Shown here piece by piece: positions 43,738 to 59,740 of a stretch of 64,000 nt of DNA. The first letter of the stretch is position 1; every line of letters starts with the position of its first letter. Both the position numbers and the translations under genes were made by a program. Source of the stretch: Minisyncoccota bacterium (GTDB taxonomy: Bacteria > Patescibacteriota > Minisyncoccia > Phycocordibacterales > PALSA-1337); the NCBI GenBank assembly GCA_041671485.1, contig JBAZBL010000004.1, positions 14,445-78,444 on the forward strand. Reading direction: 5' to 3'. Under the pieces are notes generated by a model. The model made no database searches, was not told where the DNA came from, and saw only the letters and a list, made by a program, of their open reading frames with translations.

Positions 43738-43775
43738 TTGTCAACAAAGCCAGCTTGATGTATCATCTTAATCAT

Positions 43776-43849
43776 GCGCCCATAGCTCAGCCTGGTAGAG
43801 CACCTGCCTTTTAAGCAGAGGGTCGAAGGTTCAAATCCTTCTGGGCGCA
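43776..43849 (+). tRNA. tRNA-Lys (anticodon UUU)
   Basis: Acceptor GCGCCCA/TGGGCGC, D-arm GCTC...GAGC, anticodon loop CTTTTAA, T-arm GAAGGTTCAAATCCTTC, discriminator A; CCA is not encoded. Confidence 0.85.
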
Positions 43850-45424
43850 CCCTTCGCTAGATTTTATAAACATGTTGGAAGCTATAGGTTTCTTCGTATT
43901 TTGGCTTTTTTGTGATGCATGTTCTAGCTTCAAAAGTTGGTCAAAAAGTAGGGAGGGATTTGATTTTATTATAAGTCCATCGGTAACTTGGAAATTGTTC
44001 CAAAAGAATCCGAGATATTGTCTTTTGAGAGCGTCTGAAGCTTTTTGATATGCGTCATAAATATTTCTTGTGAGGTTCAGGATTTCTTGGGCAATATCGA
44101 CATTCACATTCTTCTGTTTCTCAAGTTCTATCAATCTATCGTCTATGTTTTGGATTTCTTGGTCTATTTCGGTCTTTACTCTCGTGAAGTCATTATCGGA
44201 AATGATATTTGAAAATAACTTTTCCTCCGCCACCTTTCTTTTGATTTCATAAGCCGTTCGTTGATTGATACATTCCTTTCTTCTGCTGTCATACGCCTTG
44301 CGCCGTTCATAGAAGATAACTTTTGCTTTGCTTATTACCATATCAATGAATGTTTGGCTGAATTCTATGGTCTTGAATTTCTCCGCGACCATGTCTTCTA
44401 GCTTGCCGACTTCAATGTATTTGCCACAACCCGACTGATTGGTGCAATGATAGTATGCTTTGCTCTTATTCAAATGCCATTCTGCGGAGTAACGACATTC
44501 ATGTGTATAACAACGGATGAAACCGCTCAAAAGCCAAGAGTATTTCCTCCTACGACAAGCGTGTTTGTTTTTCGCCATGATTACTTCTTGCACCTTGTTG
44601 AATAACTCCTCGCTTATAAGAGGTTCATGCTTTCCAATTTTGATGTGAATATCGCTCCAATGTACTTCGCCAATGAAAAACCTATTTTTCAGTGTGTTAT
44701 AGAGCTGGGCGTCAGATCGTTTACCACCATGTTTTGTCTGTAACCCTTTCTCAAACATAATGTCGTTTAGTTCGTAAACATTGTAATTGCCCGTTGCGTA
44801 CAGTTTGAACGCTTCCTTGACCAATGGTCCGTCATGTGGGTCAACGATAATACTTTTCTGACCAAAACGTCCGATAGATAAATTGGGGGTGCTGACATTT
44901 TTGTAGCCGACTGGAGCCATGCAAGGGTAGTAGCCCGCTTTGGCTTTTTCTTTCATTGTCATACTCACTTTTTCGGAAGTAATATCTCTATGAAATTGAT
45001 TCATTGACGCCATGACAGTGCCGACCATTTTGGAAGTCGCGGAATCATCCATATCTGGTTGCTGAATACACTTAACCAACACCCCATTTTTACGGAACAA
45101 ATCCATGAGGTTGAGATGGTCTAGGGTGTTACGAGCCAATCGGTCGCTGTGGACGACATAGATAGCGCCGATAGACTTTGCCAAGACAAGTTTGATGACT
45201 TGCTGAATGCCTGGTCTTTTCAAAGTACCAGCACTTTTGCCTTCATCTTTTATAACTTCTAATATTGAATATCCGTCATTTGTAGCGTCTTCGGTACAAA
45301 TATTTTCCTGTGATTCAATCGAAAGTCCTGTACTAGCTTGGTCATCAGTAGAAACACGGCAGTAAATTACTGCAGTCTTTTTGACGGCTTCTGATTGGTT
45401 TTCAACTCTTTGTATTGGTGTCAT
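43811..45424 (-). CDS. Large serine recombinase (resolvase/invertase N-domain, recombinase domain, zinc ribbon, coiled coil)
   Basis: N-terminal catalytic-Ser region (AVIYCRVSTDDQ) and a long C-terminal extension. The last 13 codons run antisense across the tRNA-Lys 3' half. Confidence 0.85.
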   Translation of the reverse strand: MTPIQRVENQSEAVKKTAVIYCRVSTDDQASTGLSIESQENICTEDATNDGYSILEVIKDEGKSAGTLKRPGIQQVIKLVLAKSIGAIYVVHSDRLARNTLDHLNLMDLFRKNGVLVKCIQQPDMDDSATSKMVGTVMASMNQFHRDITSEKVSMTMKEKAKAGYYPCMAPVGYKNVSTPNLSIGRFGQKSIIVDPHDGPLVKEAFKLYATGNYNVYELNDIMFEKGLQTKHGGKRSDAQLYNTLKNRFFIGEVHWSDIHIKIGKHEPLISEELFNKVQEVIMAKNKHACRRRKYSWLLSGFIRCYTHECRYSAEWHLNKSKAYYHCTNQSGCGKYIEVGKLEDMVAEKFKTIEFSQTFIDMVISKAKVIFYERRKAYDSRRKECINQRTAYEIKRKVAEEKLFSNIISDNDFTRVKTEIDQEIQNIDDRLIELEKQKNVNVDIAQEILNLTRNIYDAYQKASDALKRQYLGFFWNNFQVTDGLIIKSNPSLLFDQLLKLEHASQKSQNTKKPIASNMFIKSSEGCAQKDLNLRPSA

Positions 45425-45677
45425 GTTGTTTTTCCTCTTTAACGATATCTAACTTGTCTTCAAGCTCCTCAAAGTTTGAATACATCTTGTCCTCAATATC
45501 TGCGAGGCGTGAATATATCCTACTTTCAATGGCGTCCATTCGTTCCTCAAGTCGCTCAAAGCTACGACCGATAGCGACAGCGACTTCATCGGTACTCTTG
45601 TAAAGAATGTGCTCGATTAATTCCAAGTCCTTTTTTGTAAGGTTATTTTTGTCTGTGATTATATTTTCTTTGTTCAT
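45402..45677 (-). CDS. Hypothetical small coiled-coil protein upstream of the recombinase
   Basis: 91 aa, co-oriented, overlaps the recombinase start. Confidence 0.35.
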   Translation of the reverse strand: MNKENIITDKNNLTKKDLELIEHILYKSTDEVAVAIGRSFERLEERMDAIESRIYSRLADIEDKMYSNFEELEDKLDIVKEEKQHDTNTKS

Positions 45678-45807
45678 TGAAGTATTTTTTAATCTAGTAA
45701 TACCTACATTTACCCCATATCTGCCCTATATTTTTATGGTGAATTTGACATGATAGTAAGCTAGTGTCTTTATATTTTATAAACTTACAAAGTAATATCA
45801 ACCATAG

Positions 45808-45816
45808 TTATCCACA
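45808..45816 (+). promoter_or_regulatory. Perfect consensus DnaA box TTATCCACA within the element's intergenic region
   Basis: 9/9 match, in a 345-nt non-coding spacer that also carries iteron-like repeats. Confidence 0.5.
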
Positions 45817-46023
45817 CTTGGTGGCTCAACAGAGCCGTATTATTAGATGAATTATTAGATTCTAATAACCATACTGAGCCTTTAGGTCTTCCTCCTTTAT
45901 GATTTGTTCCTGCTCTTGCCATAGATTGATTGAAAACAATAAAACATTATTCTTAGATTCTAATAATTCATTAAATGTAGGAAACTATTAACACACAGGG
46001 CTGTCTTTACTTTATTGATTCAA

Positions 46024-47646
46024 TCAATAAAGGGAATCAGCACCTGTGTCTTCAGTCGTTGTATCCTCTGAAACAGTAGGCGGTAATGTTGGGAGTCCTC
46101 GAATAGCTCTACATTCTTCGCTTAGGAACCATGCAAAGTCCTTGGATAGATGGAGTTTCTTTTCAGGTTCACCAACAAAACCATCACTTTCTGCTGTAAC
46201 ATTTGCGATATGAAGTATTTTGAGAGTCTCCATCTCTGTGTGAGCAGTGGGTGTGGAACATTGTAGCGATGCTTTAACTTCATGAGTTCTCATAAGACCG
46301 TTGTTCAAAAGCAAAGCTCGAAATAATTTCGCTCGCGTAGTCGGCGCACTTTCGATTGCAAGCTCAACAGCCAAGCGCAAATCGTCAGGCGATATCTGTT
46401 TTCTACCACATAGCACGGCGTGTCCTCTGCATAGGTTGTATAGTAACTGAGTAATTCGGTCAGGATTTTCGATAGTGGGAGGGTGATATTTATAAGATAC
46501 TTCGTTTGAACCAGAGGTTTTTTCCTGTACATAAATTACGCCACGCAGTTTTGCTAGTAATTTTGCACAACGTGCGATTATCTTTATATACAGGTGATCA
46601 TCTCTTTCTCTATTCCACTCCACACCATCAGGGTTTTTAGACCAGAGAGTGTGTAATAAATCTTTGGTTGCCTCTCTACACACCCTTTCCTTATCCTTAG
46701 TGGAACGGGTAATAATCTGCTCTGCAAGCTCATCCTCACTTTTTTCTTTTGTTCCCATGTTTAGGAAAAACAGTCTTGAACCAATATTACCCATCACTTT
46801 CCATACTCGTGGCTGGATTGGTGTTGACGCCGCCAACATCATGAATAGGTAATCACCAAGATAACCACGTTGTCCGTGAGTTCCTGAGTCAGTACTTAGA
46901 CCTTGACCATCAAGCACTCTGGTCAAAAGTCCAAGCGATTCGTTGAGAGAGTCATCACTCTTGGAAAAAATTGTTGCCAAATCTCGAATGAGAAGTGCTT
47001 TATATCTGATACGAAGTAACAAATCTATCCCAGCCAAATCCTCCTTTTTGATATTTGATGCATTTGAGACGAAAGATGCAGGTGTAAACTTATCGGTTGA
47101 GTAAGTGATGCCTTCAATTTGGTCAAAAAAGTTTAGTGTGATGGTTTTCCCAGATGAGGGCACATCAACAAGTACTAATGCGAATGGATTAGTTATTTCT
47201 GTAATGAGAATCTGCACAATAACGGACGCGGCGACTTCTGCTGGGAACATCAAGCCATGGAAATTTGTTTCTATCGTACTACTCCACTCATCGAATGAGA
47301 CTTCACGAGTAGGTTTATCAATTTTTATAATTCGTTTAGCTGGCGGAGGTGGCTCTTGTTTGGAAGTCTCCTCACTATTGTTTCTTTTTCCTTTGGAATA
47401 CTTTTTGCGTGGCTCGCTTACTTCTTCCTTATCTGATATTCCTAATTTTTCTAACCATACCTCTTTACCAACTGTTATTTGGCATTCACCACATTCACCG
47501 CGACTTGTATCCGGGTTAATCATAAAGGTCATGTCTAGATGTTTTGGTGCGCATTCCTGATCGCGATACGGACAATCGATATAAATCAAGCCTTCTGATA
47601 TAGCATTGAGTATATTATTGTCATTTAGTAATTTAATGATATTCAT
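46024..47646 (-). CDS. Mobile-element replication-associated P-loop NTPase (primase/helicase-like) with an N-terminal Cys-cluster
   Basis: CPYRDQEC...CGEC zinc-finger-like N-terminus and a P-loop (VDVPSSGKTITL). Its context, next to an integrase and iterons, supports the call. Confidence 0.4.
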   Translation of the reverse strand: MNIIKLLNDNNILNAISEGLIYIDCPYRDQECAPKHLDMTFMINPDTSRGECGECQITVGKEVWLEKLGISDKEEVSEPRKKYSKGKRNNSEETSKQEPPPPAKRIIKIDKPTREVSFDEWSSTIETNFHGLMFPAEVAASVIVQILITEITNPFALVLVDVPSSGKTITLNFFDQIEGITYSTDKFTPASFVSNASNIKKEDLAGIDLLLRIRYKALLIRDLATIFSKSDDSLNESLGLLTRVLDGQGLSTDSGTHGQRGYLGDYLFMMLAASTPIQPRVWKVMGNIGSRLFFLNMGTKEKSEDELAEQIITRSTKDKERVCREATKDLLHTLWSKNPDGVEWNRERDDHLYIKIIARCAKLLAKLRGVIYVQEKTSGSNEVSYKYHPPTIENPDRITQLLYNLCRGHAVLCGRKQISPDDLRLAVELAIESAPTTRAKLFRALLLNNGLMRTHEVKASLQCSTPTAHTEMETLKILHIANVTAESDGFVGEPEKKLHLSKDFAWFLSEECRAIRGLPTLPPTVSEDTTTEDTGADSLY

Positions 47647-47927
47647 ATTATTTAATTATTTTTAATAAGTTTTCCTTCTTCTCCTTTTCCATTTCGTCAA
47701 TGTGAGCAACTAAAATTTCTGACAATGTTGATATAGCCGTCTCAAAAATATTGTCCGTAGTCTTATCGACCTCTTTATTTTTTATTTGATTTTTTTCCAT
47801 AAAGAAAAGTACCCTTAAACAATAGGGTACTTGACTATGTATTACAACTATGGTGTGGTCAGTTAAACACTTCTTATGTGTCCTATGTGGATAAGACGAT
47901 TTTGTAAGATTATATAGTTATTCATGG

Positions 47928-48866
47928 CTAAAAAAAGACTATATCTTTTGGTTCATTTAGCCCAATATCATGTCCATAGACTATTTGTTTTTTAATATTA
48001 TCTGGTATCTGTTTTCCTGTTCCTAATAATTTCCTATACTTACTTCCAGCTCGTGATGATGCTCTTCTCAAACTGTCAGGAAGTCTTTTTATCTTATCTG
48101 AATATGCCCTGACCACATCTTCTATTCTTAGCCTCTGCCCTTGTTTCCCATATATGCTATTTTTCAAATCTTTAATTTCTATCCACCTATGCACGATTTC
48201 CTCTTTTGTTGTAAGACCTGAAATCTCAAAAGAGATGGTTGGTTCGTAACCGCCTCTATTATTTTTTAACTGTAAATTAATAACTGATGAATGGCGGGGC
48301 AAGTACCAGTCACCCGTTAGCAATAGAACAACTATTGATTCATACCAACAATATTCAAGACCATAATCTTTCATAAGACTAAGAAGATTTTTATTAAATC
48401 TATATGGCATATAGTCAATTGTTATTTTATTGTTTTTATATTTCTGCTCACATGCAATTAGCCAAAAAACATATTCTAATTTTGCATGCCAGACATTAAG
48501 TATGGGTAGGAAAGCAAAACCAAAGTCGAACCTGTCAAACTTGTATTTGAATCTTAGCAAATCATTTGCTTCAGCAAACTTTAACAGATCGCGGATAAAT
48601 CCTTTTTTATTTAGGACAACGACAGCTACATTTAAAAAGAACTTATTTAATTGTTTTCTATAGTCTTTATCTTTTTCGAACTCAGGCAGAATAGATGGTC
48701 TGATCAATTGTTTAATATCTTTATCTATAAGATTTTTGAACTTTTCTTCCTTTGTTGTGGGTATTTCATAAATACTATACATCCATTTTAGGGAGTTTAG
48801 TTGTGATTTTGTTGGAATTCCTGAGATTGACATGATAATGGGTATGTTTATACTTGGTTCTTTCAC
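47928..48866 (-). CDS. Hypothetical protein (element cargo)
   Basis: 312-aa ORF with no recognisable family. Confidence 0.35.
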   Translation of the reverse strand: MKEPSINIPIIMSISGIPTKSQLNSLKWMYSIYEIPTTKEEKFKNLIDKDIKQLIRPSILPEFEKDKDYRKQLNKFFLNVAVVVLNKKGFIRDLLKFAEANDLLRFKYKFDRFDFGFAFLPILNVWHAKLEYVFWLIACEQKYKNNKITIDYMPYRFNKNLLSLMKDYGLEYCWYESIVVLLLTGDWYLPRHSSVINLQLKNNRGGYEPTISFEISGLTTKEEIVHRWIEIKDLKNSIYGKQGQRLRIEDVVRAYSDKIKRLPDSLRRASSRAGSKYRKLLGTGKQIPDNIKKQIVYGHDIGLNEPKDIVFF

Positions 48867-49304: not shown

Positions 49305-49901
49305 ATGAAAAAGAAAAATCTAAATATACCAAAACCGTCACCAGAAGAAGTCCAGTACTATCTGAATTTTTGGGATTCTAATGCTGATCTTAAATTATCT
49401 GATAGTAGTCTAAAATATTTATTTTCGAAAACCTATCCGCAGAACAATAATCTTGAAGAAGTACTTATAAAGGTGTGTACACTGAAAAGTTTGTTTGGTT
49501 TGATTATATTTTCACCAATCACAGTTGCTAAGCATATCATATCCCTAGAAATAGACAGCAAATTTTTGAAAGACGACCTAATGATAGTAAATGAAATTGC
49601 TTCGGTTAATATCAGTACAAATAGAATCATTAACTTCTATTCATTTGCAACAAAATACTGTAGTTTTCATAAGCCAAATATATATCTTAAATATGATTAC
49701 CATGTATCAAAACTACTTAAGCATCATGAACAGACGGATAAATTTGATGAATTTACAGAGATGGAATTAAGATACTACGATAAATATCACGAAGTCTTCA
49801 TAAATTTTAGAAAAAAATATGGACTAGATCTATTTAGTTTAGAACAGATTGAAAGATACTTATATTTAGCAGGTAAAAAATATTTTCCTCAAAATTATTA
49901 G
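49305..49901 (+). CDS. Hypothetical protein (element cargo)
   Basis: 198-aa ORF, preceded by a structured leader with a terminator. Confidence 0.35.
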   Translation: MKKKNLNIPKPSPEEVQYYLNFWDSNADLKLSDSSLKYLFSKTYPQNNNLEEVLIKVCTLKSLFGLIIFSPITVAKHIISLEIDSKFLKDDLMIVNEIASVNISTNRIINFYSFATKYCSFHKPNIYLKYDYHVSKLLKHHEQTDKFDEFTEMELRYYDKYHEVFINFRKKYGLDLFSLEQIERYLYLAGKKYFPQNY

Positions 49902-49908
49902 AAATTTT

Positions 49909-50418
49909 ATGAATCCTAAAGAATACTATTACAACCGCTTTCGCCCCCAGTTTGATGAATGGATAAGTAAATTATCTTTACAGGGTTTTGTATTGGGTAT
50001 TTACAGAAATATTCCTATTCAATTCCTGCGAAAAGAAAATCTCTCGCACATTCCTCCAAAAGACTATATGTCGTTCTATCATGCACTTGCATACACTGTT
50101 TTAATTGATCAGGTCATGTATACCTACTTTAGGAAAGATTATCCGAAATTTGAGCAAATGACACATTATCCGAAAATTGAGTACGGATTAAGCAATACAT
50201 ATGCTCGCCCCTGGGATATTTCACATGGTAGCGGTGGTATTACAACATTTGAACAGTTTGCTGAATTTTTTGTTGTAGATATTAAGCAGTTTTTTACTGA
50301 TTACAAGTTTGAAACAGCGACATGGAACACAGTAAAGAAAGCAATGCTTAGTGATGAAGATGTTGTAGGTGGTTCACAAGGAGAAATCTTTAGAAAAACG
50401 TTAGAGAAAATAAAATGA
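49909..50418 (+). CDS. Hypothetical protein (element cargo)
   Basis: 169-aa ORF, 8 nt downstream of the previous gene. Confidence 0.35.
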   Translation: MNPKEYYYNRFRPQFDEWISKLSLQGFVLGIYRNIPIQFLRKENLSHIPPKDYMSFYHALAYTVLIDQVMYTYFRKDYPKFEQMTHYPKIEYGLSNTYARPWDISHGSGGITTFEQFAEFFVVDIKQFFTDYKFETATWNTVKKAMLSDEDVVGGSQGEIFRKTLEKIK

Positions 50419-50493
50419 TATCCACACAAAGGTTGATGTTTCTAATATAAGTATTTAATATATAAAAATGTGGATAACCTTACTTGAAATTAT

Positions 50494-51009
50494 ATGAATG
50501 AAAATAACAACATAACAAATGAACACGAAAAAATAAAAAACCTTGAATCAAAGATTTGGTTTCGTCTTCTAAAGGTAATTTTTATTTTTGTGTATCTAGC
50601 TATATTTTTATTTCTATTAGTTTTTGCGTACTCTAGTAAACCCTATGCTATCATTGATGAGTATAATTCAGTGATTGTGTGTGATAATGGAACGAGATAC
50701 AAAGCTGGAGATAATGGTATTAATGCCGAAGAAGCATGGGCTGAACAATTAGGTGCCACAAGGGTAGACCTAAATGGACTTACTCCAACAAAAATACAAG
50801 CAACACATTTATGCCTAGGTTATTCTGAAGGAAAGATTGGCTTTATTCCTGATATACCTCCCTATAAAGTAGAGATAGTGAGAAAGACTGTAGGGGATTG
50901 GAGTAGTTTTATTGGGTATACCGCTTTAGTATTATTCGTTACTATTATTGTCTTTGAGTTAGTCAAGCGATCTTTCTTCTATATTGTACTTGGGAAAAGG
51001 TTTTTTTAG
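50494..51009 (+). CDS. Hypothetical membrane protein
   Basis: 171 aa with two hydrophobic helices. Confidence 0.35.
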   Translation: MNENNNITNEHEKIKNLESKIWFRLLKVIFIFVYLAIFLFLLVFAYSSKPYAIIDEYNSVIVCDNGTRYKAGDNGINAEEAWAEQLGATRVDLNGLTPTKIQATHLCLGYSEGKIGFIPDIPPYKVEIVRKTVGDWSSFIGYTALVLFVTIIVFELVKRSFFYIVLGKRFF

Positions 51010-51018
51010 ATAATTAAT

Positions 51019-51927
51019 ATGCACCTCTGGACTTACATAAAATCTCGCAACGAAACGCTACTAGTAGTGGTTATTGCTGTAGTCGTGGTTATATCACTAA
51101 TAATTTGGTTTTTCCAAGATAAGGCACCAATACAAGAGATATCCGAACAATCAATCACGAATCAAAAAGAAATCACACAAAATGATAATTTCCAAAATAG
51201 TATGTTTATTAGAATTAGAGATAAACTTACCTTTAATAACGAACCCTATCATGGTCTTGAAGACGGGAGCTACCTTCCAGTTCTACGATTACCCATAAAG
51301 TATTTCCATAAGGATGATTTTCGAGGTGGGATATGGAATACTGCGGAAATAAAAGATAGCGATTATACCAATGCTACCCTTACTGGAAATGACGCATACC
51401 AGTCATTCCCAACAACTACGATAACTTTCCATAGTTGGTCATCAGATGCTGAACCCATACTACCAATAAAAACAAAAAGTCAAATAAGAGAAATCATAAA
51501 CACATATCCCGAACTCTATGAAGACAATCTGAAACAATACGGAGAATTTACCACTCGCTTTTGGCCTAATAGATATGTTACGGAAAAACAGTACTTTGAT
51601 GTTGATAATGATGGGAAAGACGAATCAATTATCTCCCTCTGTAGTAACATGGGTGGAAATATGGATTGCCCTGATAAAATCAATATCATAAAAGGAAATC
51701 AGATTATTTTCACAGCATCGGGTGAAGGAATAGGTATTTCGTCATCGAAAACAGACGATGGATTCTATATTGAATGGACAGATCGAGATACTCCTCCGAA
51801 TTTATTTATGGGCTATTGTTGTTCCGCTGGTAATAAGAAGACAAGGTTCATATTCTATAATAATGAATTTAAACCATTATACGAACAAGAGATACGATAT
51901 TTTGAGGTAATTGATACTCAATTTTGA
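51019..51927 (+). CDS. Hypothetical signal-anchored protein, paralogous leader family member 1
   Basis: N-terminus MHLWTYIKSRNETL plus TM. Its first ~40 nt are nearly identical to those of the next gene. Confidence 0.45.
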   Translation: MHLWTYIKSRNETLLVVVIAVVVVISLIIWFFQDKAPIQEISEQSITNQKEITQNDNFQNSMFIRIRDKLTFNNEPYHGLEDGSYLPVLRLPIKYFHKDDFRGGIWNTAEIKDSDYTNATLTGNDAYQSFPTTTITFHSWSSDAEPILPIKTKSQIREIINTYPELYEDNLKQYGEFTTRFWPNRYVTEKQYFDVDNDGKDESIISLCSNMGGNMDCPDKINIIKGNQIIFTASGEGIGISSSKTDDGFYIEWTDRDTPPNLFMGYCCSAGNKKTRFIFYNNEFKPLYEQEIRYFEVIDTQF

Positions 51928-51944
51928 ATCCCTAACAATCAAAC

Positions 51945-53147
51945 ATGCACCTCTGGACTTACATAAAATCTCGCAACGAAACATTACGGTTGGCAGTTAT
52001 TGCTATGGTCATAATTACCTTCTTAATCATTTGGTCTTCAATACATAAGACGCAAAATTCAATTTCTTCTGATTTCAAATGTCCCAATGACTACAAAACA
52101 ATTGAGGAGTATGTTGAGAGTCTCGCTAAATGGATTCGAGTTACAATGGATGAAAATCCCAAAATAACACCTGATGAGATACAGAAATTAAGAGATGAAG
52201 AAATTGCAGAACATAAATGCAGTTTAAGTAATTGGCTATCGGAAGATGATATGGCTATGTTAGATAAATCAGTAACTTCTTTGACAGAAAGCACGACTAC
52301 TACAAATGAACAGATTTTCAACTTGAATATTACGATAGCTAGAACACCGTATGAGCTTTCCGATTATTCACCAAATGGAGATTACTGGATAGCCAATTAT
52401 TATTCAGCAACCACATCATCCAACCAATTTAATCCTAAAATTATTGTTTTATATGTTCCAATCTATTCCACCTACGCAAACTCTGATGGAACAGAAGTTA
52501 CAGCGAAAAATGTAGCAGATAATTTTGCTTATCACACAAAAGAAGACGGTTTCACACTTCTCAACCCACTTTCATTTACTGACCCCAAAAAACCTGATAC
52601 AGATATTTATGTACTTACATCCTATAAATTACGCATGGATGAAGATTACAGCCCAATTTTCTTCACAGTTATTCGAAAGACCAAGTCTGGAGTTTTTGCT
52701 GTGCTTTATGATAAGGAAATTGAAAATGGTATAGATGAAACTTTAACAAGACAGAAAATACTAGAATGGCTAAATATCCATACAAAATACATGGAACAAA
52801 TTGAGAAATTCGATCCATTTGATTTCCTCCATGAAGACATGACATCATATTCTAATATCTCACAACATCAAGAAGTTAATATAACTGGAAGAGTTGTAGA
52901 TTGGATGACCTATGGAAGAATCTTGGTAAAAAATTCAGTTTCTGACTATCCGTTTATGTATTTTATAGCAGAACCAGATGATGTAATTTCTGAGGGTACT
53001 TCACGGTATAGTCCAACAACCAATGCAATCAAAAATGAAGCTACTATTAAAATAATTGGAGAGATAATTGATGGATGTTTTTGGAATGAAAAAAAATATG
53101 ATGGCTGTGTGCCATGGGTTACAATAAAGAGTTTACAACAAATATAA
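51945..53147 (+). CDS. Hypothetical signal-anchored protein, paralogous leader family member 2
   Basis: Same MHLWTYIKSRNETL leader with a different 380-aa body. Confidence 0.45.
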   Translation: MHLWTYIKSRNETLRLAVIAMVIITFLIIWSSIHKTQNSISSDFKCPNDYKTIEEYVESLAKWIRVTMDENPKITPDEIQKLRDEEIAEHKCSLSNWLSEDDMAMLDKSVTSLTESTTTTNEQIFNLNITIARTPYELSDYSPNGDYWIANYYSATTSSNQFNPKIIVLYVPIYSTYANSDGTEVTAKNVADNFAYHTKEDGFTLLNPLSFTDPKKPDTDIYVLTSYKLRMDEDYSPIFFTVIRKTKSGVFAVLYDKEIENGIDETLTRQKILEWLNIHTKYMEQIEKFDPFDFLHEDMTSYSNISQHQEVNITGRVVDWMTYGRILVKNSVSDYPFMYFIAEPDDVISEGTSRYSPTTNAIKNEATIKIIGEIIDGCFWNEKKYDGCVPWVTIKSLQQI

Positions 53148-53320
53148 AGAGTGATGGAGTAAACTGCATTTAAACACCCTGTTCTTACCGCTTATCTTCG
53201 CGTAGGACTGATTCATTCTCGAGATTGGTGTACTTTATGGCTGAAAATGAGGGCGCCTGTTATCTTAGGTTTTCTTAGGTTCTAGTTTTTAGATTTTTAG
53301 CGTATATAAGGGAGATAAAA

Positions 53321-53653
53321 CTATAAACTATTTTTCTGGTCAGAATGCCCATATATCTTATTGATTGAAGATGTCAGCACTGCGTTTAACTTTGCATTTA
53401 GTTGAAACTGTTTATTTTCAACATTTCCTAACTCTATGGTCTCTTTCGGTTTCCCAACTGAATATTCAAGCAACATCTTAAATGCTGATGTATTTGATTT
53501 CTCTGCTAATACAGTCTTAATCTGCGCATCTATCATTGGTCCGATCTGTTCATGGACTCTTTTTGTAATCTCCTCATTTATGCGTTGAGTTAGAAGTGTC
53601 TTTGTAGCAAGCGGTCGTCCCGCCCCTTCCCTTTTTCCTCCTCTATTTTCCAT
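53321..53653 (-). CDS. Hypothetical small basic protein (phage-like GGKREGAGRP N-terminus)
   Basis: 110 aa. The Gly/Arg-rich N-terminus is reminiscent of phage small DNA-binding proteins. Confidence 0.35.
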   Translation of the reverse strand: MENRGGKREGAGRPLATKTLLTQRINEEITKRVHEQIGPMIDAQIKTVLAEKSNTSAFKMLLEYSVGKPKETIELGNVENKQFQLNAKLNAVLTSSINKIYGHSDQKNSL

Positions 53654-53769
53654 GATACTTTAAGTTAGTTTAAATTCTCATACTTATTCAAACAATCAAA
53701 CTAATATTTAGATTATAAAGTAAGGGTGGGGATAATCAACCGAATAACAAAAATGTAGAATTCTTTGAT

Positions 53770-54273
53770 ATGATACTGTATATGATAAGACTTTGGTTTT
53801 TGGTTAGATATTTTGTCTATTTTCCAGCCACAAATGGTTATTGGGCGAACCAAAATGATGCGATAGAGAGGGATAAATTCATATGGTATATTGTTACGGA
53901 TAAGTTACTTTTTCAAAATATTATAGATACTATTAGAGAGTTCTATTTTAGAAAAATACAAGGACACTATAACAATGAGACAGATGAGGTTGTTATGGAG
54001 AGATTGCGTAGGCGTCTAAAAAAGATTGATGATCTTATTGATAGAGCTATTTCGAAAAATTACTTGGTACCCATAAATAAGAATGGATATCATCAAAATC
54101 TAAAAATTGAGTGGCAGGGAAAGAATTTTATTAAACTGTTACCGTTCTGTGAGGCGTGTCTAAAAGAATATGGGCAATCCGTGACTATCATTATTGCTTT
54201 GTTAGGATCTGGAATAATTTCGGTGATTATTACTAATTGGGGTAATATAATTTCATATTTTCATTCATTATAA
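53770..54273 (+). CDS. Hypothetical protein with a C-terminal TM helix
   Basis: 167-aa ORF. Confidence 0.3.
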   Translation: MILYMIRLWFLVRYFVYFPATNGYWANQNDAIERDKFIWYIVTDKLLFQNIIDTIREFYFRKIQGHYNNETDEVVMERLRRRLKKIDDLIDRAISKNYLVPINKNGYHQNLKIEWQGKNFIKLLPFCEACLKEYGQSVTIIIALLGSGIISVIITNWGNIISYFHSL

Positions 54274-54330
54274 AAAGTATATTGATTGATTTGCTGTTTT
54301 AAAATAAAGTTGTATAGTTAAATTACCAAA

Positions 54331-54612
54331 ATGCTAGAAGAAAAAATAATAAAAATTATCTTGAAAGTTGCTGGAATTTGTTTGATTTTCTTAATCATAT
54401 CTCCTTTCTTTATTACACCAGAAACGGGAAGTACACTTGAAACTATTATGCTTATACCTGTCATTCCAGTAATAATGGCAGGCGTGATTTTGGTTGTGCT
54501 TAGTCGTTCTCGTCACGATACAATACTTCCTCCATATCTTCGTGTAGTTGGTCTTATTCTCTTTGGACTATGGATTTTGTCATTCTTCATTGATAACCCT
54601 TTTCGTGGATAG
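54331..54612 (+). CDS. Small membrane protein
   Basis: 93 aa, three hydrophobic helices. Confidence 0.3.
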   Translation: MLEEKIIKIILKVAGICLIFLIISPFFITPETGSTLETIMLIPVIPVIMAGVILVVLSRSRHDTILPPYLRVVGLILFGLWILSFFIDNPFRG

Positions 54613-54619
54613 GATAATA

Positions 54620-55272: not shown

Positions 55273-56193
55273 ATGTCTATTTTCCAGATCCAAAATTCAA
55301 AGCTGATCGCTATAAGGGATAAAGATGTAGAACTTGAGAAAGATATTCAGAAATTGACGGAAGAAAATCTTGAAACCGTATTTGGTTTACAATTTATCAG
55401 AACGGAGTTTCCTCTTGGTGATTTTAGAATCGATACTCTTGCTTTTGACAATGAGTCAAATTCATTCGTGATTATTGAATACAAACGAGATAGGAGTTTT
55501 AGTGTTATTGATCAAGGATATTCTTATCTTGCTCTAATGCTTAATAATAAAGCAGACTTTATTCTTGAATACAACGAAAAACTTCAGACCAATCTTAGAA
55601 AAGATGATGTAGATTGGTCTCAGTCCCGTGTTATTTTTCTGGCAAAGTCATTCAATCGGTATCAGCAAAATGCTATCAATTTTCGCGACCTTCCAATTGA
55701 ATTGTGGGAAGTAAAGAACTATGACAATTCAACTATTCTTTACAATCAACTTCTTTCTCCTGAAGCGAAAGAATCAGTAAAATCTATCACTAGAAATAAG
55801 ACTATAGAAAACGTAACCAAAGAGGTAAAAGTTTATACTATTGAAGATCATACTAATCATATAAATAAAGATACTAGGGACCTTTTTGAAATGATTCGTG
55901 AAAAGATTTTAGCTTTAGGTGGTAATATTGAAGAGAGACCTAAGAAAAAATATATCGCATATAGAACACATCAAGCATTTTTATATGTGCACATTCAACA
56001 GTCACAAATAAAATTACATATCATTATTGGTAAATCAAAATTAAACGACCCCAAAGGAATCACTAGGGATGTTTCAAAAGTTGGTCATTATGGTGGGGGG
56101 GTAACTGAAATTGTTCTAACTAAAATGGAAGAAATTTCATATATAATGACGTTAATTGAGCAGTCTTTTAATTCTTCTAAAAGTAGTTTCTAG
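55273..56193 (+). CDS. PD-(D/E)xK nuclease-fold protein with a C-terminal DUF5655-like domain
   Basis: The RIDTLAFD...VIIEYKRD motif places D...E.K in a restriction-endonuclease-like core. Confidence 0.45.
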   Translation: MSIFQIQNSKLIAIRDKDVELEKDIQKLTEENLETVFGLQFIRTEFPLGDFRIDTLAFDNESNSFVIIEYKRDRSFSVIDQGYSYLALMLNNKADFILEYNEKLQTNLRKDDVDWSQSRVIFLAKSFNRYQQNAINFRDLPIELWEVKNYDNSTILYNQLLSPEAKESVKSITRNKTIENVTKEVKVYTIEDHTNHINKDTRDLFEMIREKILALGGNIEERPKKKYIAYRTHQAFLYVHIQQSQIKLHIIIGKSKLNDPKGITRDVSKVGHYGGGVTEIVLTKMEEISYIMTLIEQSFNSSKSSF

Positions 56194-56235
56194 TGATAAT
56201 AGGAATTTCAGCTAGAGAGCTTTTTAAATAAACCT

Positions 56236-57285
56236 ATGGCTACTAAATCATTAAATAGTAATCTACATAAAGCAGGTAGAGCAAAGCAAGACGAGTTTTA
56301 TACCCAGCTTATTGATATTGAAAAAGAATTAAAGCACTACAAAGAACAGTTTCGAGGTAAGGTGGTGTATTGCAACTGCGACGATCCGTTTGAAAGCAAT
56401 TTTTTCAAATATTTTGCCACCAACTTTAATGCGCTTGGTCTCAAAAAGTTAATCACTACCAGTTTTACAAAGTCGCCAATTGCCGGAGGGCAGTTGCCGC
56501 TCTTTGAAGTCAAAGGTCTAAAACCGAAAGGTAAAGAGCCGTTTAAAATTGAGCTTAATGAAGTAACCGATAGCAATGCCGACGGCGCTGTTGGGATTGC
56601 CGATGTGAAATGGCTTTTGAAAAACGATGCCAACATCGCCACTGCTCTAAAGGGCGACGGAGATTTTCGCAGTGATGAGTGTATTGAACTGCTTAAAGAG
56701 GCAGATATTGTCGTAACCAACCCGCCGTTTTCGCTCTTTCGTGAGTATGTAGCGCAACTTGTGGAATATAATAAAAAGTTTTTGATTCTAGGCGACCAAA
56801 ATGCAGTAACCTATAAAGAAACCTTCGGTTTTATCAAAGAAAATAAATTATGGCATGGTTACGATAATGGTGGTACAAAATGGTTTCAGGTTCCTAATGA
56901 TTATGACATTGAAACAGAGTCAAGAATAAAAATTGAAAACGGTACAAAGTTTTTCAGTATGGGTAGAATTGTATGGTATACAAACCTCGACACTACAAAA
57001 CGTCATGAAAAAATAGAATTATATAAGAAATATTCGTCAGAAGAATTTCCTAAATACGATAACTACAACGTAATAAATGTTGATAAGGTAGCCGATATAC
57101 CAATGGATTATAAGGGAGTAATGGGCGTACCGATTACCTTTGTTGATAAATATAGTCCAGCACAGTTTGAAATATTGGGCGTTGCAAATTCTGCAAGATG
57201 GATCGGTTACGAATGTTTTACTTTAATTGAAGGTAGAAAAATATATAATCGAATTTTAATTAAAAATAAGAAGGTAAAAAAATAA
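56236..57285 (+). CDS. N6-adenine DNA methyltransferase, M.EcoRI family
   Basis: The IVVTNPPFS catalytic motif, plus N-terminal KQDEFYTQ and VVYCNCDDPFESNFFKYF regions typical of EcoRI-type methylases. GC-rich relative to the genome. Confidence 0.75.
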   Translation: MATKSLNSNLHKAGRAKQDEFYTQLIDIEKELKHYKEQFRGKVVYCNCDDPFESNFFKYFATNFNALGLKKLITTSFTKSPIAGGQLPLFEVKGLKPKGKEPFKIELNEVTDSNADGAVGIADVKWLLKNDANIATALKGDGDFRSDECIELLKEADIVVTNPPFSLFREYVAQLVEYNKKFLILGDQNAVTYKETFGFIKENKLWHGYDNGGTKWFQVPNDYDIETESRIKIENGTKFFSMGRIVWYTNLDTTKRHEKIELYKKYSSEEFPKYDNYNVINVDKVADIPMDYKGVMGVPITFVDKYSPAQFEILGVANSARWIGYECFTLIEGRKIYNRILIKNKKVKK

Positions 57286-57286
57286 T

Positions 57287-58396
57287 ATGAAAATTGATTT
57301 ACATAAAATTTCTGTGCGCGAAGTATTTGGTGGCTACAAAGACAGTGCCGAAGAAGGAGTGGTAGCTTATGGAGGTAAGCTAGATATTCGCCCAAAATAC
57401 CAGCGGGAATTTGTCTACAAGCCCGAGCAACGTGATGCGGTCATGCATACTGTTCAACATCAATTTCCGCTTAATGTCATGTATTGGATAGAAAATAGCG
57501 CCGGAAACTATGAGTTGCTTGATGGTCAACAGCGTACACTAAGCATTTGTCAGTACGTGAGCGGCGACTATTCCATTCATGACCGCTATTTCCATAATCT
57601 CACCAAGGAAGAAAAAGACCAGATACTCGACTACGAGCTCATGATCTACTTTTGTGACGGCACCGATAAGGAGCGCATTGAATGGTTTGAAGTTATAAAT
57701 ACAGCTGGTGAAAAACTTACCCCGCAGGAGTTGCTTAACGCCGTCTACACTGGACCATGGCTCTCGGATGCAAAACTCAAATTCAGTAAAACGGGCTGCG
57801 TATCCTATCATTTGGCAAATGATGGCGGAGCATTAGTCAGCGGATCGCCAATTCGGCAAGAGTATCTGGAAACCGCACTTTCGTGGATAAACAACGGTGA
57901 AGTGGCGGGCTACATGGCTAAACACCAGCACGACAAGAACGCTGACAAATTGTGGGACTATTTCCAAAATGTAATTGATTGGGTACGGAAAACATTTACC
58001 AATTATCGTCGAGAAATGAACAGCGTGGGGTGGGGTGAGTTGTATAACGAATTTAAAGACAAAAAACTGAATGCCGAGAAACTGGAGACCGAAATCAAAG
58101 AGTTGATGCAAGACGAAGATGTAACGAAAAAATCTGGTGTTTATCCGTATGTATTGACGAGACAAGAAAAATATCTTTCAATTCGTGCCTTTACCGATAA
58201 AATGAAGCGCGAGGCATACGAGCGACAAAACGGTATCTGTACAGATTGTAAAAAACAGAAAAAACAGAAAATAAAGTGGGATATTTCTGAAATGGAAGCT
58301 GATCATATAAAACCGTGGCATGAAGGAGGAAGAACAATTGCAGAAAATTGCAAAATGTTATGCAAAGACGATAATCGAGATAAATCAGGAAAATAA
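57287..58396 (+). CDS. DUF262 (ParB-like, DGQQR motif) plus C-terminal HNH nuclease protein
   Basis: The LLDGQQRTLSI hallmark of DUF262/GmrS-like N-domains, and a C-terminal CTDCKK...ADHIKPWHEGGRT...NCKMLCKDDN zinc-finger HNH. Its start is 2 nt after the MTase stop. Confidence 0.7.
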   Translation: MKIDLHKISVREVFGGYKDSAEEGVVAYGGKLDIRPKYQREFVYKPEQRDAVMHTVQHQFPLNVMYWIENSAGNYELLDGQQRTLSICQYVSGDYSIHDRYFHNLTKEEKDQILDYELMIYFCDGTDKERIEWFEVINTAGEKLTPQELLNAVYTGPWLSDAKLKFSKTGCVSYHLANDGGALVSGSPIRQEYLETALSWINNGEVAGYMAKHQHDKNADKLWDYFQNVIDWVRKTFTNYRREMNSVGWGELYNEFKDKKLNAEKLETEIKELMQDEDVTKKSGVYPYVLTRQEKYLSIRAFTDKMKREAYERQNGICTDCKKQKKQKIKWDISEMEADHIKPWHEGGRTIAENCKMLCKDDNRDKSGK

Positions 58397-58410
58397 AATA
58401 GACCAAGATT

Positions 58411-59103
58411 ATGACAGGAATATTCTTTGCACATCCACATACACTTCTAGATCAAGTAGGTAAGGTTATGGACAGAGTCGGTTCTGAAAAATTCTTTTCA
58501 AGTTCAGATGAAAAGGTAAAGAAAGCCAGAGAAGGATTTGTGGCATATTTCTTCACTCTTGCCTTAAAGAAATATACGAGGAGAGATTGGTGGTTGGCGC
58601 AGTATGACCAAGCCACAAGGGCTTACCCAGATTTCGATTTTATATCTTTTGCAGAAAATCCTGATGATATGAAAATGGAACCAGTGGAGCTAACTGGTAT
58701 TTATCCTCACTTCAAATCTTTTGACGAAGCTCTAAAAGTTGTTGAGAAGAAACAGAACCAATATGGTGATAAGTCAGTGAAGTTCAGTTTGTTAGTCTTT
58801 GTTAATCACGAGAAGAGCGAAGAATGGATCAGTCTACTTAGACAGAAAGTAAGTAGTGAGCATCCATTCTTGAGTATATGGACAATACACTTGCGTTTTA
58901 AAGATGGCAGAAAGGAAGTTGGCAAGGCAGTTGCCCAAAGGATTGTGCCATTACCATATCTAAGAGTCGAAGCCAGAACCGATGACCCTGAGATGCATAA
59001 AAGACAACCCCTTCCAACTTATATAGAACAACACCAAGACGGTGAAAATATTTATATTACATTCAAAGCTGAGTTTATTAATAAAATGCGAAGGACTAAG
59101 TAG
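58411..59103 (+). CDS. Hypothetical protein, fourth gene of the defence-like operon
   Basis: 230-aa ORF, co-directional, 14 nt after the HNH gene. Confidence 0.35.
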   Translation: MTGIFFAHPHTLLDQVGKVMDRVGSEKFFSSSDEKVKKAREGFVAYFFTLALKKYTRRDWWLAQYDQATRAYPDFDFISFAENPDDMKMEPVELTGIYPHFKSFDEALKVVEKKQNQYGDKSVKFSLLVFVNHEKSEEWISLLRQKVSSEHPFLSIWTIHLRFKDGRKEVGKAVAQRIVPLPYLRVEARTDDPEMHKRQPLPTYIEQHQDGENIYITFKAEFINKMRRTK

Positions 59104-59365
59104 TAAATACTTACAATCCGATAGATTAATCAATAAAGTAAATCAATCCGTGTGTGCCATCTCCAACTCCGCCTTAATCCCCACAAAGCTTGTATACAAC
59201 GATTCCATATATTCCCAATCTTCTAGTATACTTATAATACCATTTGGACAAGGACTCTTAAACACACATCGCCTTAATAAACATCAACCGATTGTACAAC
59301 CCCTGCATATAATCCCTATCCGAGAAAATGGTTATAATAATCTCTTGTTCGGGGCACCAACATAT

Positions 59366-59740
59366 TTACAACGGCATATCAAATGCAAAGAAACCTGCTC
59401 CTGTTACGAGAAGTGAAATTGCCATGATGAGTAGTAGGAGATAGTAATTGACTCCGTCTGTGAGGAAGGCTTTTCCTCGGATGCGATCTATGAGGCGAAC
59501 AATAAGGTCAATGAGAATAATTAGGGCGGCTAGTTGAGTCCATAGGCCGATAATGAGCATGATTCCCAACAGACCTTCTATGATCTGAATTATTTTAGTA
59601 TTGAGAGAGACATTGTTTGACGATTTGTTTGCACGAAAACTACGATATGCCCAGAATAGAAATACGGCACCGAGAGAAAGGCGGATCAGAAATGGAGAAA
59701 GTTGTTCATATGTAAGTAGTGAAGGGAATATTGAAAGCAT
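59366..59740 (-). CDS. DoxX-family membrane protein
   Basis: 124 aa, four TM helices with the DoxX-like pattern (RL.LG..F...G..K). Confidence 0.45.
   Translation of the reverse strand: MLSIFPSLLTYEQLSPFLIRLSLGAVFLFWAYRSFRANKSSNNVSLNTKIIQIIEGLLGIMLIIGLWTQLAALIILIDLIVRLIDRIRGKAFLTDGVNYYLLLLIMAISLLVTGAGFFAFDMPL

Follow-up and report, generated by a model that had tools for sequence, protein, structure and literature searches.

The reading frame of a serine recombinase ends inside a tRNA-Lys gene in the window, the whole 64-kb stretch of DNA that was analysed, which belongs to a Candidatus Paceibacterota genome. The question was whether this recombinase is the integrase of an element inserted at the tRNA, as the original prediction had proposed, and where the far end of such an element would lie.

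The recombinase and its overlap with tRNA-Lys

ARAGORN detected tRNA-Lys with anticodon ttt at 43775-43852 (+), and together with reading of the sequence this placed an intact tRNA-Lys(UUU) at 43776..43849 (+), with the discriminator A at 43849. The gene of the large serine recombinase (LSR), which in its integrated form encodes 537 aa, was delimited at 43811..45424 (-) by the ORF list, Pfam and an alignment of homologues. The earlier statement that this minus-strand ORF ends within tRNA-Lys, with its terminal codons antisense to the tRNA, was confirmed: the overlap measured 39 nt and contained 12 sense codons (C-A-Q-K-D-L-N-L-R-P-S-A) and the stop. Within the tRNA, it takes in the T-arm and the variable loop, together with the 3' strands of the acceptor and anticodon stems. 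TAA (43811-43813), the stop codon, is the complement of tRNA anticodon bases 35-36 plus A37. The element itself encodes residues 1-526 of the protein; the frame then continues into the antisense strand of the tRNA, which supplies residues 527-537 and the stop. Because an LSR ORF was found to end in, or to read through, an antisense tRNA gene (His, Asn, Lys or Leu) at at least 31 of the 52 loci with homologues, the overlap cannot be attributed to chance.

In the 537-aa protein, Pfam detected a Resolvase domain (PF00239, 2.8e-31, residues 18-165) and a Recombinase domain (PF07508, 2.7e-10), and the match to Zn_ribbon_recom (PF13408) was weak, at 19.3 bits against a cut-off of 25.3. Residues Y21, R23 and S25 of the catalytic motif YCRVSTDDQ were invariant among 28 homologues, and the Cys/His columns C305, H308, C327 and C333 were also invariant in the homologue alignment. 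Among PDB sequences, the protein matched the integrases of TP901-1 (catalytic domain, 1.2e-14) and A118. The AlphaFold model of a homologue, P0047, which is 54% identical to the LSR of the window, contained long helices at 346-426 and matched the full-length SPbeta, Bxb1 and phiC31 integrases with E values of 1e-18 to 1e-14; in Foldseek, its sequence identity to full-length integrase structures was 12-19%. The best NCBIfam match was CcrB (1.6e-34), which at 119 bits was far under the family threshold of 900. Judging by the domain set, the catalytic residues and the short att sites described below, the recombinase was assigned to the large serine recombinases.

The original prediction had not found the tRNA 3' end repeated in the window, and had suggested a search for a direct repeat with mismatches. 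This search was run: even when up to 3 mismatches were allowed, the window contained GGTTCAAATCCTTCTGGGCGCA only once. A blastn-short search with the whole tRNA and its flanks as the query gave zero matches in the window. [quoted passage not shown] In the examples considered, serine integrases insert inside protein genes and have short cores of 2-8 bp, although some repeats of rumA integrative and conjugative elements (ICEs) reach 21 bp (PMC8092301, PMC4701971). Cores as short as these give no reason to expect that the end of the tRNA would be repeated over a long stretch.

Ends of the element and the split integrase gene

The right end was located by means of a related locus, L082, in which the LSR is 90% identical in protein to that of the window and the host holA is only 63% identical. 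The two elements agree in the left end and, over 94 bp at 89% identity, in the right end (59267-59360), and the homology stops at the core, at 59357-59360. The end motif recurs at five further loci; in L001, L004, L007 and L041, the element side is closed by ATGGTTATAATAATCTCnnGTTCGGGGCAC, beyond which the sequences diverge. On the host side, homology with a relative (L147) starts within ~7 nt of the predicted attR core. The integrative element delimited in this way occupies ~43852-59353, or 15.5 kb, and its flanks share only a 5-bp core, GCACC.

At attL, this core (43847..43851) consists of the last bases of the acceptor stem, the discriminator A and 2 nt of the 3' trailer, and it is common to attR, where the core (59354..59358), placed by comparison with other loci, is followed by the B' arm, AACATATTTACAACGG. 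The crossover falls within GCAC, the core common to L082, L001 and L041. The B arm of the former attB corresponds to the final ~20-25 nt of tRNA-Lys. The P' arm of attP, now in attL (43852..43882), reads CTTCGCTAGATTTTATAAACATGTTGG; it also codes for LSR residues ...MFIKSSEG and is identical in L082. Its motif TTATAA (43864-43869) was invariant at five tRNA-Lys loci and was also present in a natural attP, that of L144. When the loci were aligned, the P and P' arms took the form TTATAA-n-AATCT / AGATT-TTATAA, about 16-17 nt from the centre.

Inverted-repeat scoring from the P' arm alone was tried as a route to attR and was dropped, as the score of 12 obtained for the P/P' repeat was non-significant in AT-rich DNA: nine sites in the 64 kb scored at least 12, and the true site was tied fourth to ninth. 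Because the P/P' repeat alone is unexceptional in this AT-rich window, the case for attR is based on the comparison across loci. Among the reasons that had been offered earlier for the missing attR, a short core site agreed with these results, and an extension of the element beyond the visible boundary or its decay did not.

At 11 loci, the att cores were 4-8 bp long: GTGC/GGTGC for Lys, GGGT for His, TGGTGCCC for Leu and GCTCC for an intron-bearing tRNA. These shared cores were set with narrow windows and by hand, since a wide-window search for the longest common substring picked spurious matches. The crossover thus placed lies at the final bases of tRNA-Lys, so that tRNA-Lys stays whole: the mature tRNA is unaltered, and only the trailer is exchanged.

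A stretch encoding the missing 3' end of the LSR was found at the far boundary. At 59258..59353 (-), 31 codons, PEQEIIITIFSDRDYMQGLYNRLMFIKAMCV, and a stop are present without a start codon of their own; across the reconstructed attP, they continue the LSR frame. The first ~30 nt of this detached tail (59325-59353) double as the P arm, AAAATGGTTATAATAATCTCTTGTTCGGG. At all 11 loci tested, the LSR frame carried on through the shared core into the distal tail. Of the tail codons, 9 differ between the window and L082, 7 of them synonymously and 2 not, which was taken as a sign of selection on the detached tail; at the protein level, the tail is conserved. The same arrangement occurs uninterrupted in nature: a natural contig, L144, carries ...GTTATAATAACTTCTGGTTCGGGGCACCAGTTATTAGATTTTATAAAC... 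within an intact 547-aa LSR gene, the product of which is 54% identical to the LSR of the window, and its attP architecture matches that reconstructed here. The homologues P0082 and P0110 carry the tail too; at three tRNA-Lys loci (L003, L005 and L009), the tail segment was absent from the available DNA. In the P0047 AlphaFold model, the attP stretch is a disordered linker, and the conserved C-terminal tail forms two helices.

Taken from these sequence comparisons, attP appears to sit inside the LSR reading frame, with the P and P' arms doubling as codons, and integration would therefore split the LSR gene. The claim that the 3' end of the integrase gene abuts the att site was correct in placing this end at the site. 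Mere abutment did not hold, since the gene spans the att site and its last 12 codons are host tRNA. Because the LSR gene spans the recombination site, insertion would exchange the tail of the enzyme for an antisense stretch of tRNA.

Gene content of the element and its host locus

Upstream of the LSR, a gene for a 91-aa acidic coiled-coil-like protein (45402..45677, -) overlaps the LSR start by 23 nt. It had only sub-threshold family matches; going by inference, this protein may be a regulator or a directionality factor. Two copies of an 18-bp palindrome, TTATTAGAWTCTAATAA, lie at 45852..45967, upstream of the operon of these two genes, and a third copy is at 48957-48974. An iteron region had been proposed here; the repeats exist and match these palindromes, which are presumed to be operators instead. 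Three genes follow at 46024..48866 (-) according to the ORF list and family searches, encoding proteins of 540 aa (P-loop, weak AAA_lid), 50 aa and 312 aa. The description of the 540-aa protein as primase/helicase-like was unsupported by Pfam, PHROGs, NCBIfam and PDB sequence searches, and because it had no above-threshold match, this label was not adopted. More generally, the 540-aa, 312-aa and 230-aa proteins and other cargo proteins gave nothing above threshold in Pfam, PHROGs, NCBIfam, PADLOC or PDB sequences.

The ORF list placed further hypothetical cargo at 49305..54612, with genes for proteins of 198, 169, 171, 302, 400, 167 and 93 aa on the plus strand and of 110 aa (53321-53653) on the minus strand. 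Conservation with the element of L082 was seen at 48857-49178 and 52871-53333. Defence cargo occupies 55273..59103 (+). According to Pfam and PADLOC, it consists of PDC-S18/DUF5655, a candidate defence gene (55273-56193), a type II methyltransferase (56236-57285) and a GmrSD_N+HNH restriction enzyme (57287-58396), and the ORF of a hypothetical 230-aa protein follows at 58411-59103. The methyltransferase and restriction enzyme pair was also present upstream of the LSRs in L033 and L051. By sequence similarity, the cargo was thus classified as a type II restriction-modification pair, the PDC-S18 candidate defence gene and hypothetical genes. Genes of replication, transfer or directionality were not identifiable among the ORFs of the element, and no ORF of the element matched a relaxase, coupling protein or type IV secretion family in Pfam or NCBIfam, searches that remote homologues may escape.

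The first core gene past the element encodes a host DoxX-like membrane protein (59366..59740, -) and is followed by SpoU at 59791, in synteny with L084, L087 and L001. Compared with relatives, the island is bracketed by the host order holA ... DoxX-SpoU-amidase-Mur ligase-RuvA. The content of the interval from tRNA-Lys to the DoxX-like gene and SpoU differs among relatives. Within one species, the tRNA-Lys site was empty in L087 and occupied in L086/L088 by a 5.9-kb insertion with a 7-bp core, GCGCACA, and the LSR of this insertion crosses the junction, its identity to the LSR of the window being only 32%. According to the original prediction, the same gene order in relatives with an intact locus and no integrase would point to a stand-alone resolvase. 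What was found instead was variable content, and one species with both the empty and the occupied state.

In the nearest relatives, no empty site was found: the holA-side contigs L080 and L081 stop in the anticodon arm of the tRNA, and the DoxX-side contigs L147-L149 contain a different insert with a RelE/ParE-like fragment and no attB. The predicted junctions were CTGGGC-GCACC-AACATAT for attB (longer, ...CCTTCTGGGC-GCACC-AACATATTTACAAC...) and GTTCGGG-GCACC-CTTCGC for attP (longer, ...CTCTTGTTCGGG-GCACC-CTTCGCTAGATT...). Exact-pattern searches for attB (TCTGGGCGCACCAACATATTTACA) and attP (GTTCGGGGCACCNNNNNNTAGATTTTATAAAC) gave 0 matches in JGI metagenome contigs, and the predicted proteins of the excised form, of 557 aa for the window and 558 aa for L082, had no exact entry in a collection of 15 billion proteins. 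The orientation of tRNA-Lys relative to the DoxX-like gene is reversed in some relatives, and the locus therefore has a history of rearrangement.

Proposed mechanism, alternatives and known systems

Considering both ends, the split gene and the relatives, the proposal of an integrative element at tRNA-Lys was supported. It is very probable that the 15.5-kb island was integrated by its LSR through recombination of attP on a circle with attB, with attP in the LSR frame and the gene split by integration. In this mechanism, attB would comprise the last ~20-25 nt of tRNA-Lys(UUU) and about 20 nt downstream, strands would be exchanged inside GCAC(C) at the tRNA 3' end, and only 5 bp would be duplicated across the two ends. 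After integration, codons 1-526 would remain beside the tRNA and be extended by 11 further codons off the antisense strand, with the stop in the anticodon loop, and the true last 31 codons would end 15.5 kb off, at attR. Excision would rebuild the 557-aa gene. Integration would presumably be performed by the full-length enzyme made from the circle, and excision by the tail-less enzyme of the integrated copy, possibly with a small partner, for example the 91-aa protein. The element probably still moves between hosts.

The same integration followed by inactivation would have left a dead relic, with a split integrase that no longer works and an island fixed in the chromosome. The scans yielded neither a circular form nor an empty site of this element, the protein of the integrated state lacks the conserved 31-aa tail, and decayed copies occur in the family, such as L002, with a truncated 488-aa LSR and no adjacent tRNA. 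However, the LSR ORF is intact and keeps every invariant catalytic residue, both att arms are conserved, and the detached tail is intact and in frame, with mostly synonymous changes against L082. Moreover, the 90% identity of the LSR stands against an identity of only 63% for holA of the two hosts, which argues for recent transfer. A relic was therefore considered unlikely. A prophage of a Patescibacteria host, using a serine integrase, seemed more improbable still. A serine integrase is a typical phage enzyme, two PHROG families of unknown function are matched by the 110-aa protein, and in L086 this site is occupied by a more distant element with a rolling-circle Rep of the G2P/RepSA type, which is found in small phages and plasmids. 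Yet no capsid, terminase, tail or lysis family was detected by Pfam or PHROGs, an alignment search with the LSR among 2.9 million IMG/VR viral contigs found no relative above 30% identity, and an element of 15.5 kb, about 4 kb of it taken up by defence genes, leaves little room for a virion module.

That the protein is a stand-alone resolvase/invertase or housekeeping recombinase, overlapping the tRNA incidentally and next to 15 kb of unrelated variable DNA, can scarcely be credited. The interval from tRNA-Lys to the DoxX-like gene does vary among relatives with or without an LSR, and most cargo genes are not common to the LSR loci. Against this, the protein has the full LSR domain set, unlike a small resolvase; L082 has both ends of the 15.5 kb in conserved form, and this conservation halts exactly at the shared core; the missing LSR 3' end lies at the far boundary; and the family includes a natural attP and a natural empty site.

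Under integration by the LSR, the C-terminal swap might also serve as a built-in sensor of the integration state, the full-length form, produced from the circle alone, and the truncated, tRNA-tailed form, produced from the integrated copy alone, differing in activity, stability or direction (integration as against excision). This idea is tentative and rather doubtful. If it were true, directionality would reside partly in gene topology and not solely in a separate directionality factor, and convergent transcription from the tRNA gene could lower integrase expression still more once the element is integrated. Control of a serine integrase by its integration state is thus raised here as a testable idea.

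Targeting of tRNA genes is the textbook property of tyrosine integrases. Like the element of the window, tyrosine-integrase islands (P4-type and others) use a tRNA 3' target, have int proximal to the tRNA, leave the tRNA functional and carry accessory or defence cargo. In contrast, their enzyme family is unrelated, and they carry a copy of the tRNA 3' end as a repeat of tens of bp, whereas only 4-8 bp are shared here. In archaeal tyrosine integrases of the SSV1 type, attP lies inside int, and integration into a tRNA gene partitions int between the ends of the element. Unlike the LSR, these are tyrosine recombinases of archaeal hosts with a long core identical to the tRNA, and a larger part of the gene is removed. 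The cores reported for tyrosine integrases are 25-76 bp long (PMC8092301). The arrangement at tRNA-Lys had been called classic; it is so for tyrosine integrases and not for serine integrases (PMC8092301, PMC4701971).

The integrases of phiC31, Bxb1, A118, TP901-1 and SPbeta resemble the LSR in domain architecture, fold, a short core, imperfect inverted arms and the lack of long repeats. In the model serine-integrase phages, attP adjoins int and is not known to lie within it; the window differs in that attB is a tRNA 3' end and attP is inside the int ORF. CcrA and CcrB of SCCmec are LSRs whose island enters rlmH, a conserved gene related to RNA, at its 3' end, but this target is a protein gene and the ccr genes are not known to span the att site. 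Prophages of M. abscessus with serine integrases, and Bxb1 as cited there, insert in and disrupt protein-coding genes (PMC8092301). A precedent for an att site within the integrase gene was found in the single serine integrases of streptococcal rumA ICEs, in which a repeat lies inside the integrase gene and 3' ends are exchanged on integration (Ambroset et al. 2016, PMC4701971). As in the window, these are LSRs with Resolvase and Recombinase domains (and a Zn ribbon), and integration changes the C-terminus. Their target is a protein gene, which is altered, whereas the tRNA 3' end in the window is read antisense and left intact; the window family also differs in its Patescibacteria hosts and small elements (6-16 kb), and no conjugation families were detected in the element of the window. 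The literature searches turned up no account of tRNA genes as targets of serine integrases in Patescibacteria.

By these comparisons, the LSR of the window is one member of a large serine integrase clade that was found mostly in genome bins of Patescibacteria and docks on the last bases of tRNAs (Lys, His, Asn, Leu, Glu and tRNAs with a group I intron). Its members neither duplicate nor damage the tRNA, and attP lies across their own gene. A natural attB consisting of a highly conserved tRNA 3' end may be of interest for genome engineering. Because only 4-8 bp are repeated, island finders based on repeats would miss such elements, and a search for the detached tail peptide could help to mark out mobile DNA and its defence cargo in these reduced and little-understood genomes. 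Near the right end of the window element, at 59143..59265 (-), a degenerate relic of a second LSR 3' end and tail, MFKSPCPNGIISILEDWEYMESLYTSF..., was also observed, which is closest to the LSR tails of the tRNA-His type.

Large serine recombinase gene overlapping tRNA-Lys

Three tRNA genes were detected in the window by ARAGORN, one of which was tRNA-Lys(UUU) at 43775-43852 (+); reading of the sequence placed the mature tRNA at 43776-43849, with CCC next on its 3' side. The 537-aa product of the ORF at 43811-45424 (-) was identified as a large serine recombinase (LSR) because it contained the Pfam domains Resolvase (2.8e-31) and Recombinase (2.7e-10), with Zn_ribbon_recom below threshold, and matched the TP901-1 and A118 integrases among PDB sequences. 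The final 12 sense codons of this ORF (CAQKDLNLRPSA) and its stop codon were the reverse complement of tRNA-Lys from the acceptor end to the anticodon loop, and the stop codon TAA lay opposite anticodon positions 35-36 and A37. The original prediction that the LSR gene ends inside tRNA-Lys and that the tRNA 3' end is not repeated in the window was fully confirmed by ARAGORN, the ORF and a repeat search.

Hundreds of LSR homologues were found, nearly all of them in Patescibacteria, and many C-termini in their alignment were of the type ...CAQLESNQRPYP, which is an antisense T-arm signature. Among 52 genome loci with homologues of 33-71% identity, at least 31 had an LSR ORF that ended in, or read through, an antisense tRNA gene. 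The target was tRNA-Lys in the closest relatives, tRNA-His in many loci and tRNA-Asn or tRNA-Leu in others; in more distant loci, tRNA-Glu adjoined the LSR gene. No tRNA repeat was present within 10 kb in any of 34 such loci. The targets in two relatives (L004, 11609-11884 (-), and L007, 11577-11761 (-)) were missed by ARAGORN because a group I intron (Rfam RF00028, 75.7 and 60.5 bits, respectively) interrupts the tRNA; the core common to both island junctions in these loci was GGAGC.

Ends of the island and the insertion site

The LSR encoded by a related locus (L082, GCA_964532285.1) was 90% identical to that of the window and overlapped the tRNA in the same way, whereas the holA proteins of the two were only 63% identical. 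Since the elements were much more alike than their hosts, these sequences indicate that the element has moved horizontally between hosts. Four regions of the island were aligned with L082 by blastn: 43774-45383 (the left end), 48857-49178, 52871-53333 and 59267-59360. The last of these comprised 94 bp of 89% identity, after which the similarity stopped. The end motif ATGGTTATAATAATCTCnnGTTCGGGGCAC was also present 7-11 kb upstream of the LSR gene in the loci L001, L004, L007 and L041, with unrelated sequence beyond it in each.

In the window, the junction on the tRNA side (attL) was ...CTTCTGGGC[GCACC]CTTCGCTAGATTTTATAAACATG..., and that on the DoxX-like side (attR) was ...TTATAATAATCTCTTGTTCGGG[GCACC]AACATATTTACAACGG..., and the host DoxX-like gene had its stop codon 7 nt beyond attR. 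Judged from these junctions, the element is about 15.5 kb long (43852-59353 plus one core copy). The core common to L082, L001 and L041 was GCAC. The arms flanking the core carried TTATAA-(n)-AATCT in inverted orientation, each approximately 16-17 nt from the centre, and this spacing placed the crossover centre inside GCAC. The reconstructed chromosomal site (attB) was ...GGGCGCA-CCA-ACAT; therefore, CCA was encoded in tRNA-Lys before insertion. For the window's exact element, exact-pattern scans of JGI metagenome contigs and a look-up of the predicted excised-form protein revealed no unoccupied site and no junction of a circle.

A natural pair of empty and occupied sites was provided by the loci L087 and L086/L088, which belong to one species (identical holA proteins, flanks 98.7-100% identical). 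Compared with L087, L086/L088 contained an extra 5.9 kb at tRNA-Lys encoding an RDD protein, a rolling-circle Rep and a 497-aa LSR. The two alignments overlapped by 7 bp, GCGCACA, corresponding to the last five tRNA-Lys bases and CA. Therefore, the crossover fell at the very 3' end of tRNA-Lys, leaving the tRNA complete and the LSR ORF crossing into host DNA. Because the 497-aa LSR was only 32% identical to that of the window, this pair demonstrates the principle and not the history of the window element itself.

The island was flanked by housekeeping genes: polA, tsaE and holA on the left and genes for a DoxX-like membrane protein, SpoU, amidase and Mur ligase, ruvA and tRNA-Arg on the right. 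The holA protein was identical to one in a Candidatus Paceibacterota MAG. Relatives kept the core gene order of the window, and the interval from holA to the DoxX-like and SpoU genes varied between genomes; thus, the foreign DNA of the window is confined to 43850-59365. In a relative whose DoxX-like protein was 94% identical, another insert occupied the position of attR, and homology to the window started no more than about 7 nt from the predicted core. Such different inserts in close relatives mark the tRNA-Lys/DoxX interval as an insertion hotspot. Relatives also differed in how tRNA-Lys is oriented with respect to the DoxX-like gene, which points to past rearrangement of the locus.

In the relative with the other insert (L147, 4628-4777; also L148 and L149), the DoxX-like gene was adjoined by a fragment of a putative RelE/ParE-like toxin gene, judged from the motif ...KGYRVIFQLVKKDF.... 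In another relative, with 90%-identical holA (L080, 4070-4180, and L081), a degenerate tRNA-Lys 5' half (GCGCTCATA...GGTAGAGCAC) lay immediately upstream of the real tRNA-Lys. Both of these Logan contigs stop in the anticodon arm of tRNA-Lys, which may reflect population variation downstream. A Logan contig of the window's strain (L143, SRR6484324) spanned the SpoU and DoxX-like genes and attR and broke off at window position 59297, in the segment encoding the LSR tail; a branch in the assembly graph or low coverage could account for this. In polA (39948-42521), a 37-nt inverted repeat (40946-41123, 95% complementary, arms 104 nt apart) lay in frame between the exonuclease and polymerase domains (Pfam) and encoded similar peptides on both strands (AIFAESRGE...). 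It resembles a small palindromic insertion that the coding region tolerates.

Split integrase gene and the proposed cycle

Joining of the element ends at the core yielded a 557-aa ORF in which the LSR ran in frame into PEQEIIITIFSDRDYMQGLYNRLMFIKAMCV. This detached tail, located at 59258-59353 (-) and in frame across the reconstructed site of the circular element (attP), had no start codon in the integrated state. A tail HMM matched 12 further loci, on the LSR-sense strand and 5-11 kb upstream of the LSR gene, and in all 11 loci with both junctions placed, tail and LSR shared one reading frame through the core, whether the target was tRNA-Lys, tRNA-His, tRNA-Leu or an intron-bearing tRNA. Nine tail codons differed between the window and L082, seven synonymously and two not, which places the tail under selection at the protein level and requires its translation in some state.

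An uninterrupted gene carried the tail in 3 of 120 database homologues (P0047, P0082 and P0110); in the others, the C-terminus was a tRNA-antisense or very short tail. In L144, the contig that encodes P0047, the sequence ...GTTATAATAACTTCTGGTTCGGGGCACCAGTTATTAGATTTTATAAAC... is a natural attP, organized like the one reconstructed for the window. The AlphaFold model of P0047 (mean pLDDT 80) as a whole matched full-length SPbeta, Bxb1 and phiC31 integrases; in it, the attP-encoding codons corresponded to a disordered linker (residues 501-517, pLDDT 33-42) and the tail to two helices (518-546, pLDDT ~70).

It was demonstrated that the island has two junctions, a 5-bp core, an intact tRNA, a split gene, conserved arms and an element-versus-host contrast in identity, and that a natural attP and a natural empty site exist within the LSR family. 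In the proposed cycle, the circular form would produce the 557-aa LSR, which would recombine attP with the tRNA-Lys attB. The integrated gene would then encode the 537-aa protein with an arbitrary tRNA-derived tail, and excision, probably with a partner protein, would rebuild the full LSR gene. The selection on the tail indicates that it does something in the circular state. The tails of integrated LSR copies were arbitrary (2 to >40 residues), which suggests that the product of the integrated copy is independent of a specific C-terminal tail.

The nearest known case is the single serine integrase of rumA-targeting ICEs in streptococci: the repeat lies within the integrase gene, and rumA and int trade their 3' ends on integration (PMC4701971). 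The serine integrases of mycobacterial prophages use cores of 5-8 bp and insert in ORFs, and tRNA sites in these prophages pair with tyrosine integrases (PMC8092301). Searches of open-access literature text did not reveal the combination present here: a serine integrase, an attB formed by the very 3' end of a tRNA that is preserved without duplication, an attP within the integrase ORF and a large clade, chiefly from Patescibacteria genome bins.

Two minor observations concern the tail. P0110 (550 aa, uninterrupted tail) was encoded on a 68-kb contig (L145, 10001-11653, JGI 3300073969; also L146), with an N6/N4 methyltransferase gene and a DEAD/ResIII helicase gene as neighbours; the 68-kb contig may be a large extrachromosomal element, or P0110 may be an unsplit resident copy. 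Directly inside the real tail of the window, a 40-aa ORF at 59143-59265 (-), MFKSPCPNGIISILEDWEYMESLYTSFVGIKAELEMAHTD, was a degenerate second LSR 3' end with tail. It was closest to the tails of tRNA-His-targeting LSRs (e.g., that of L011), which suggests replacement of an older integrase/attP module, with a switch of target tRNA.

Cargo genes and repeats

PADLOC and Pfam identified three defence genes, encoding a PDC-S18/DUF5655 protein (55273-56193), a type II methyltransferase of the EcoRI-methylase family (56236-57285) and a GmrSD_N+HNH restriction enzyme (57287-58396). Two other loci (L033 and L051) also had the methylase and nuclease genes as a pair on the element side of their LSRs. 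Family searches assigned none of the other island ORFs, including that of the 540-aa P-loop protein, whose earlier primase/helicase-like label was thus not upheld. Because no virion or conjugation genes were seen in the island and no close relative of the LSR was found in viral contigs, the element is called an integrative island rather than a prophage or ICE; it is possibly plasmid-like.

Three copies of an 18-bp palindrome, TTATTAGAWTCTAATAA, were found. Two (45852-45869 and 45950-45967) lay upstream of the operon of the LSR and a 91-aa protein (45402-45677 (-)), and the third (48957-48974) lay between the divergent genes of the 312-aa and 198-aa proteins. A regulator encoded by the element probably uses them as operators. 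A perfect direct repeat of 22 nt, ATCTTAGGTTTTCTTAGGTTCT, was located at 49058-49079 and 53262-53283, on either side of the plus-strand cargo block 49305-53147, and both copies fell in stretches conserved with the L082 element. The cargo genes for the 302-aa and 400-aa proteins had a common 115-nt 5' repeat (51016-51130 and 51942-52056, 75% identity); therefore, these proteins are paralogues with a shared N-terminal segment.
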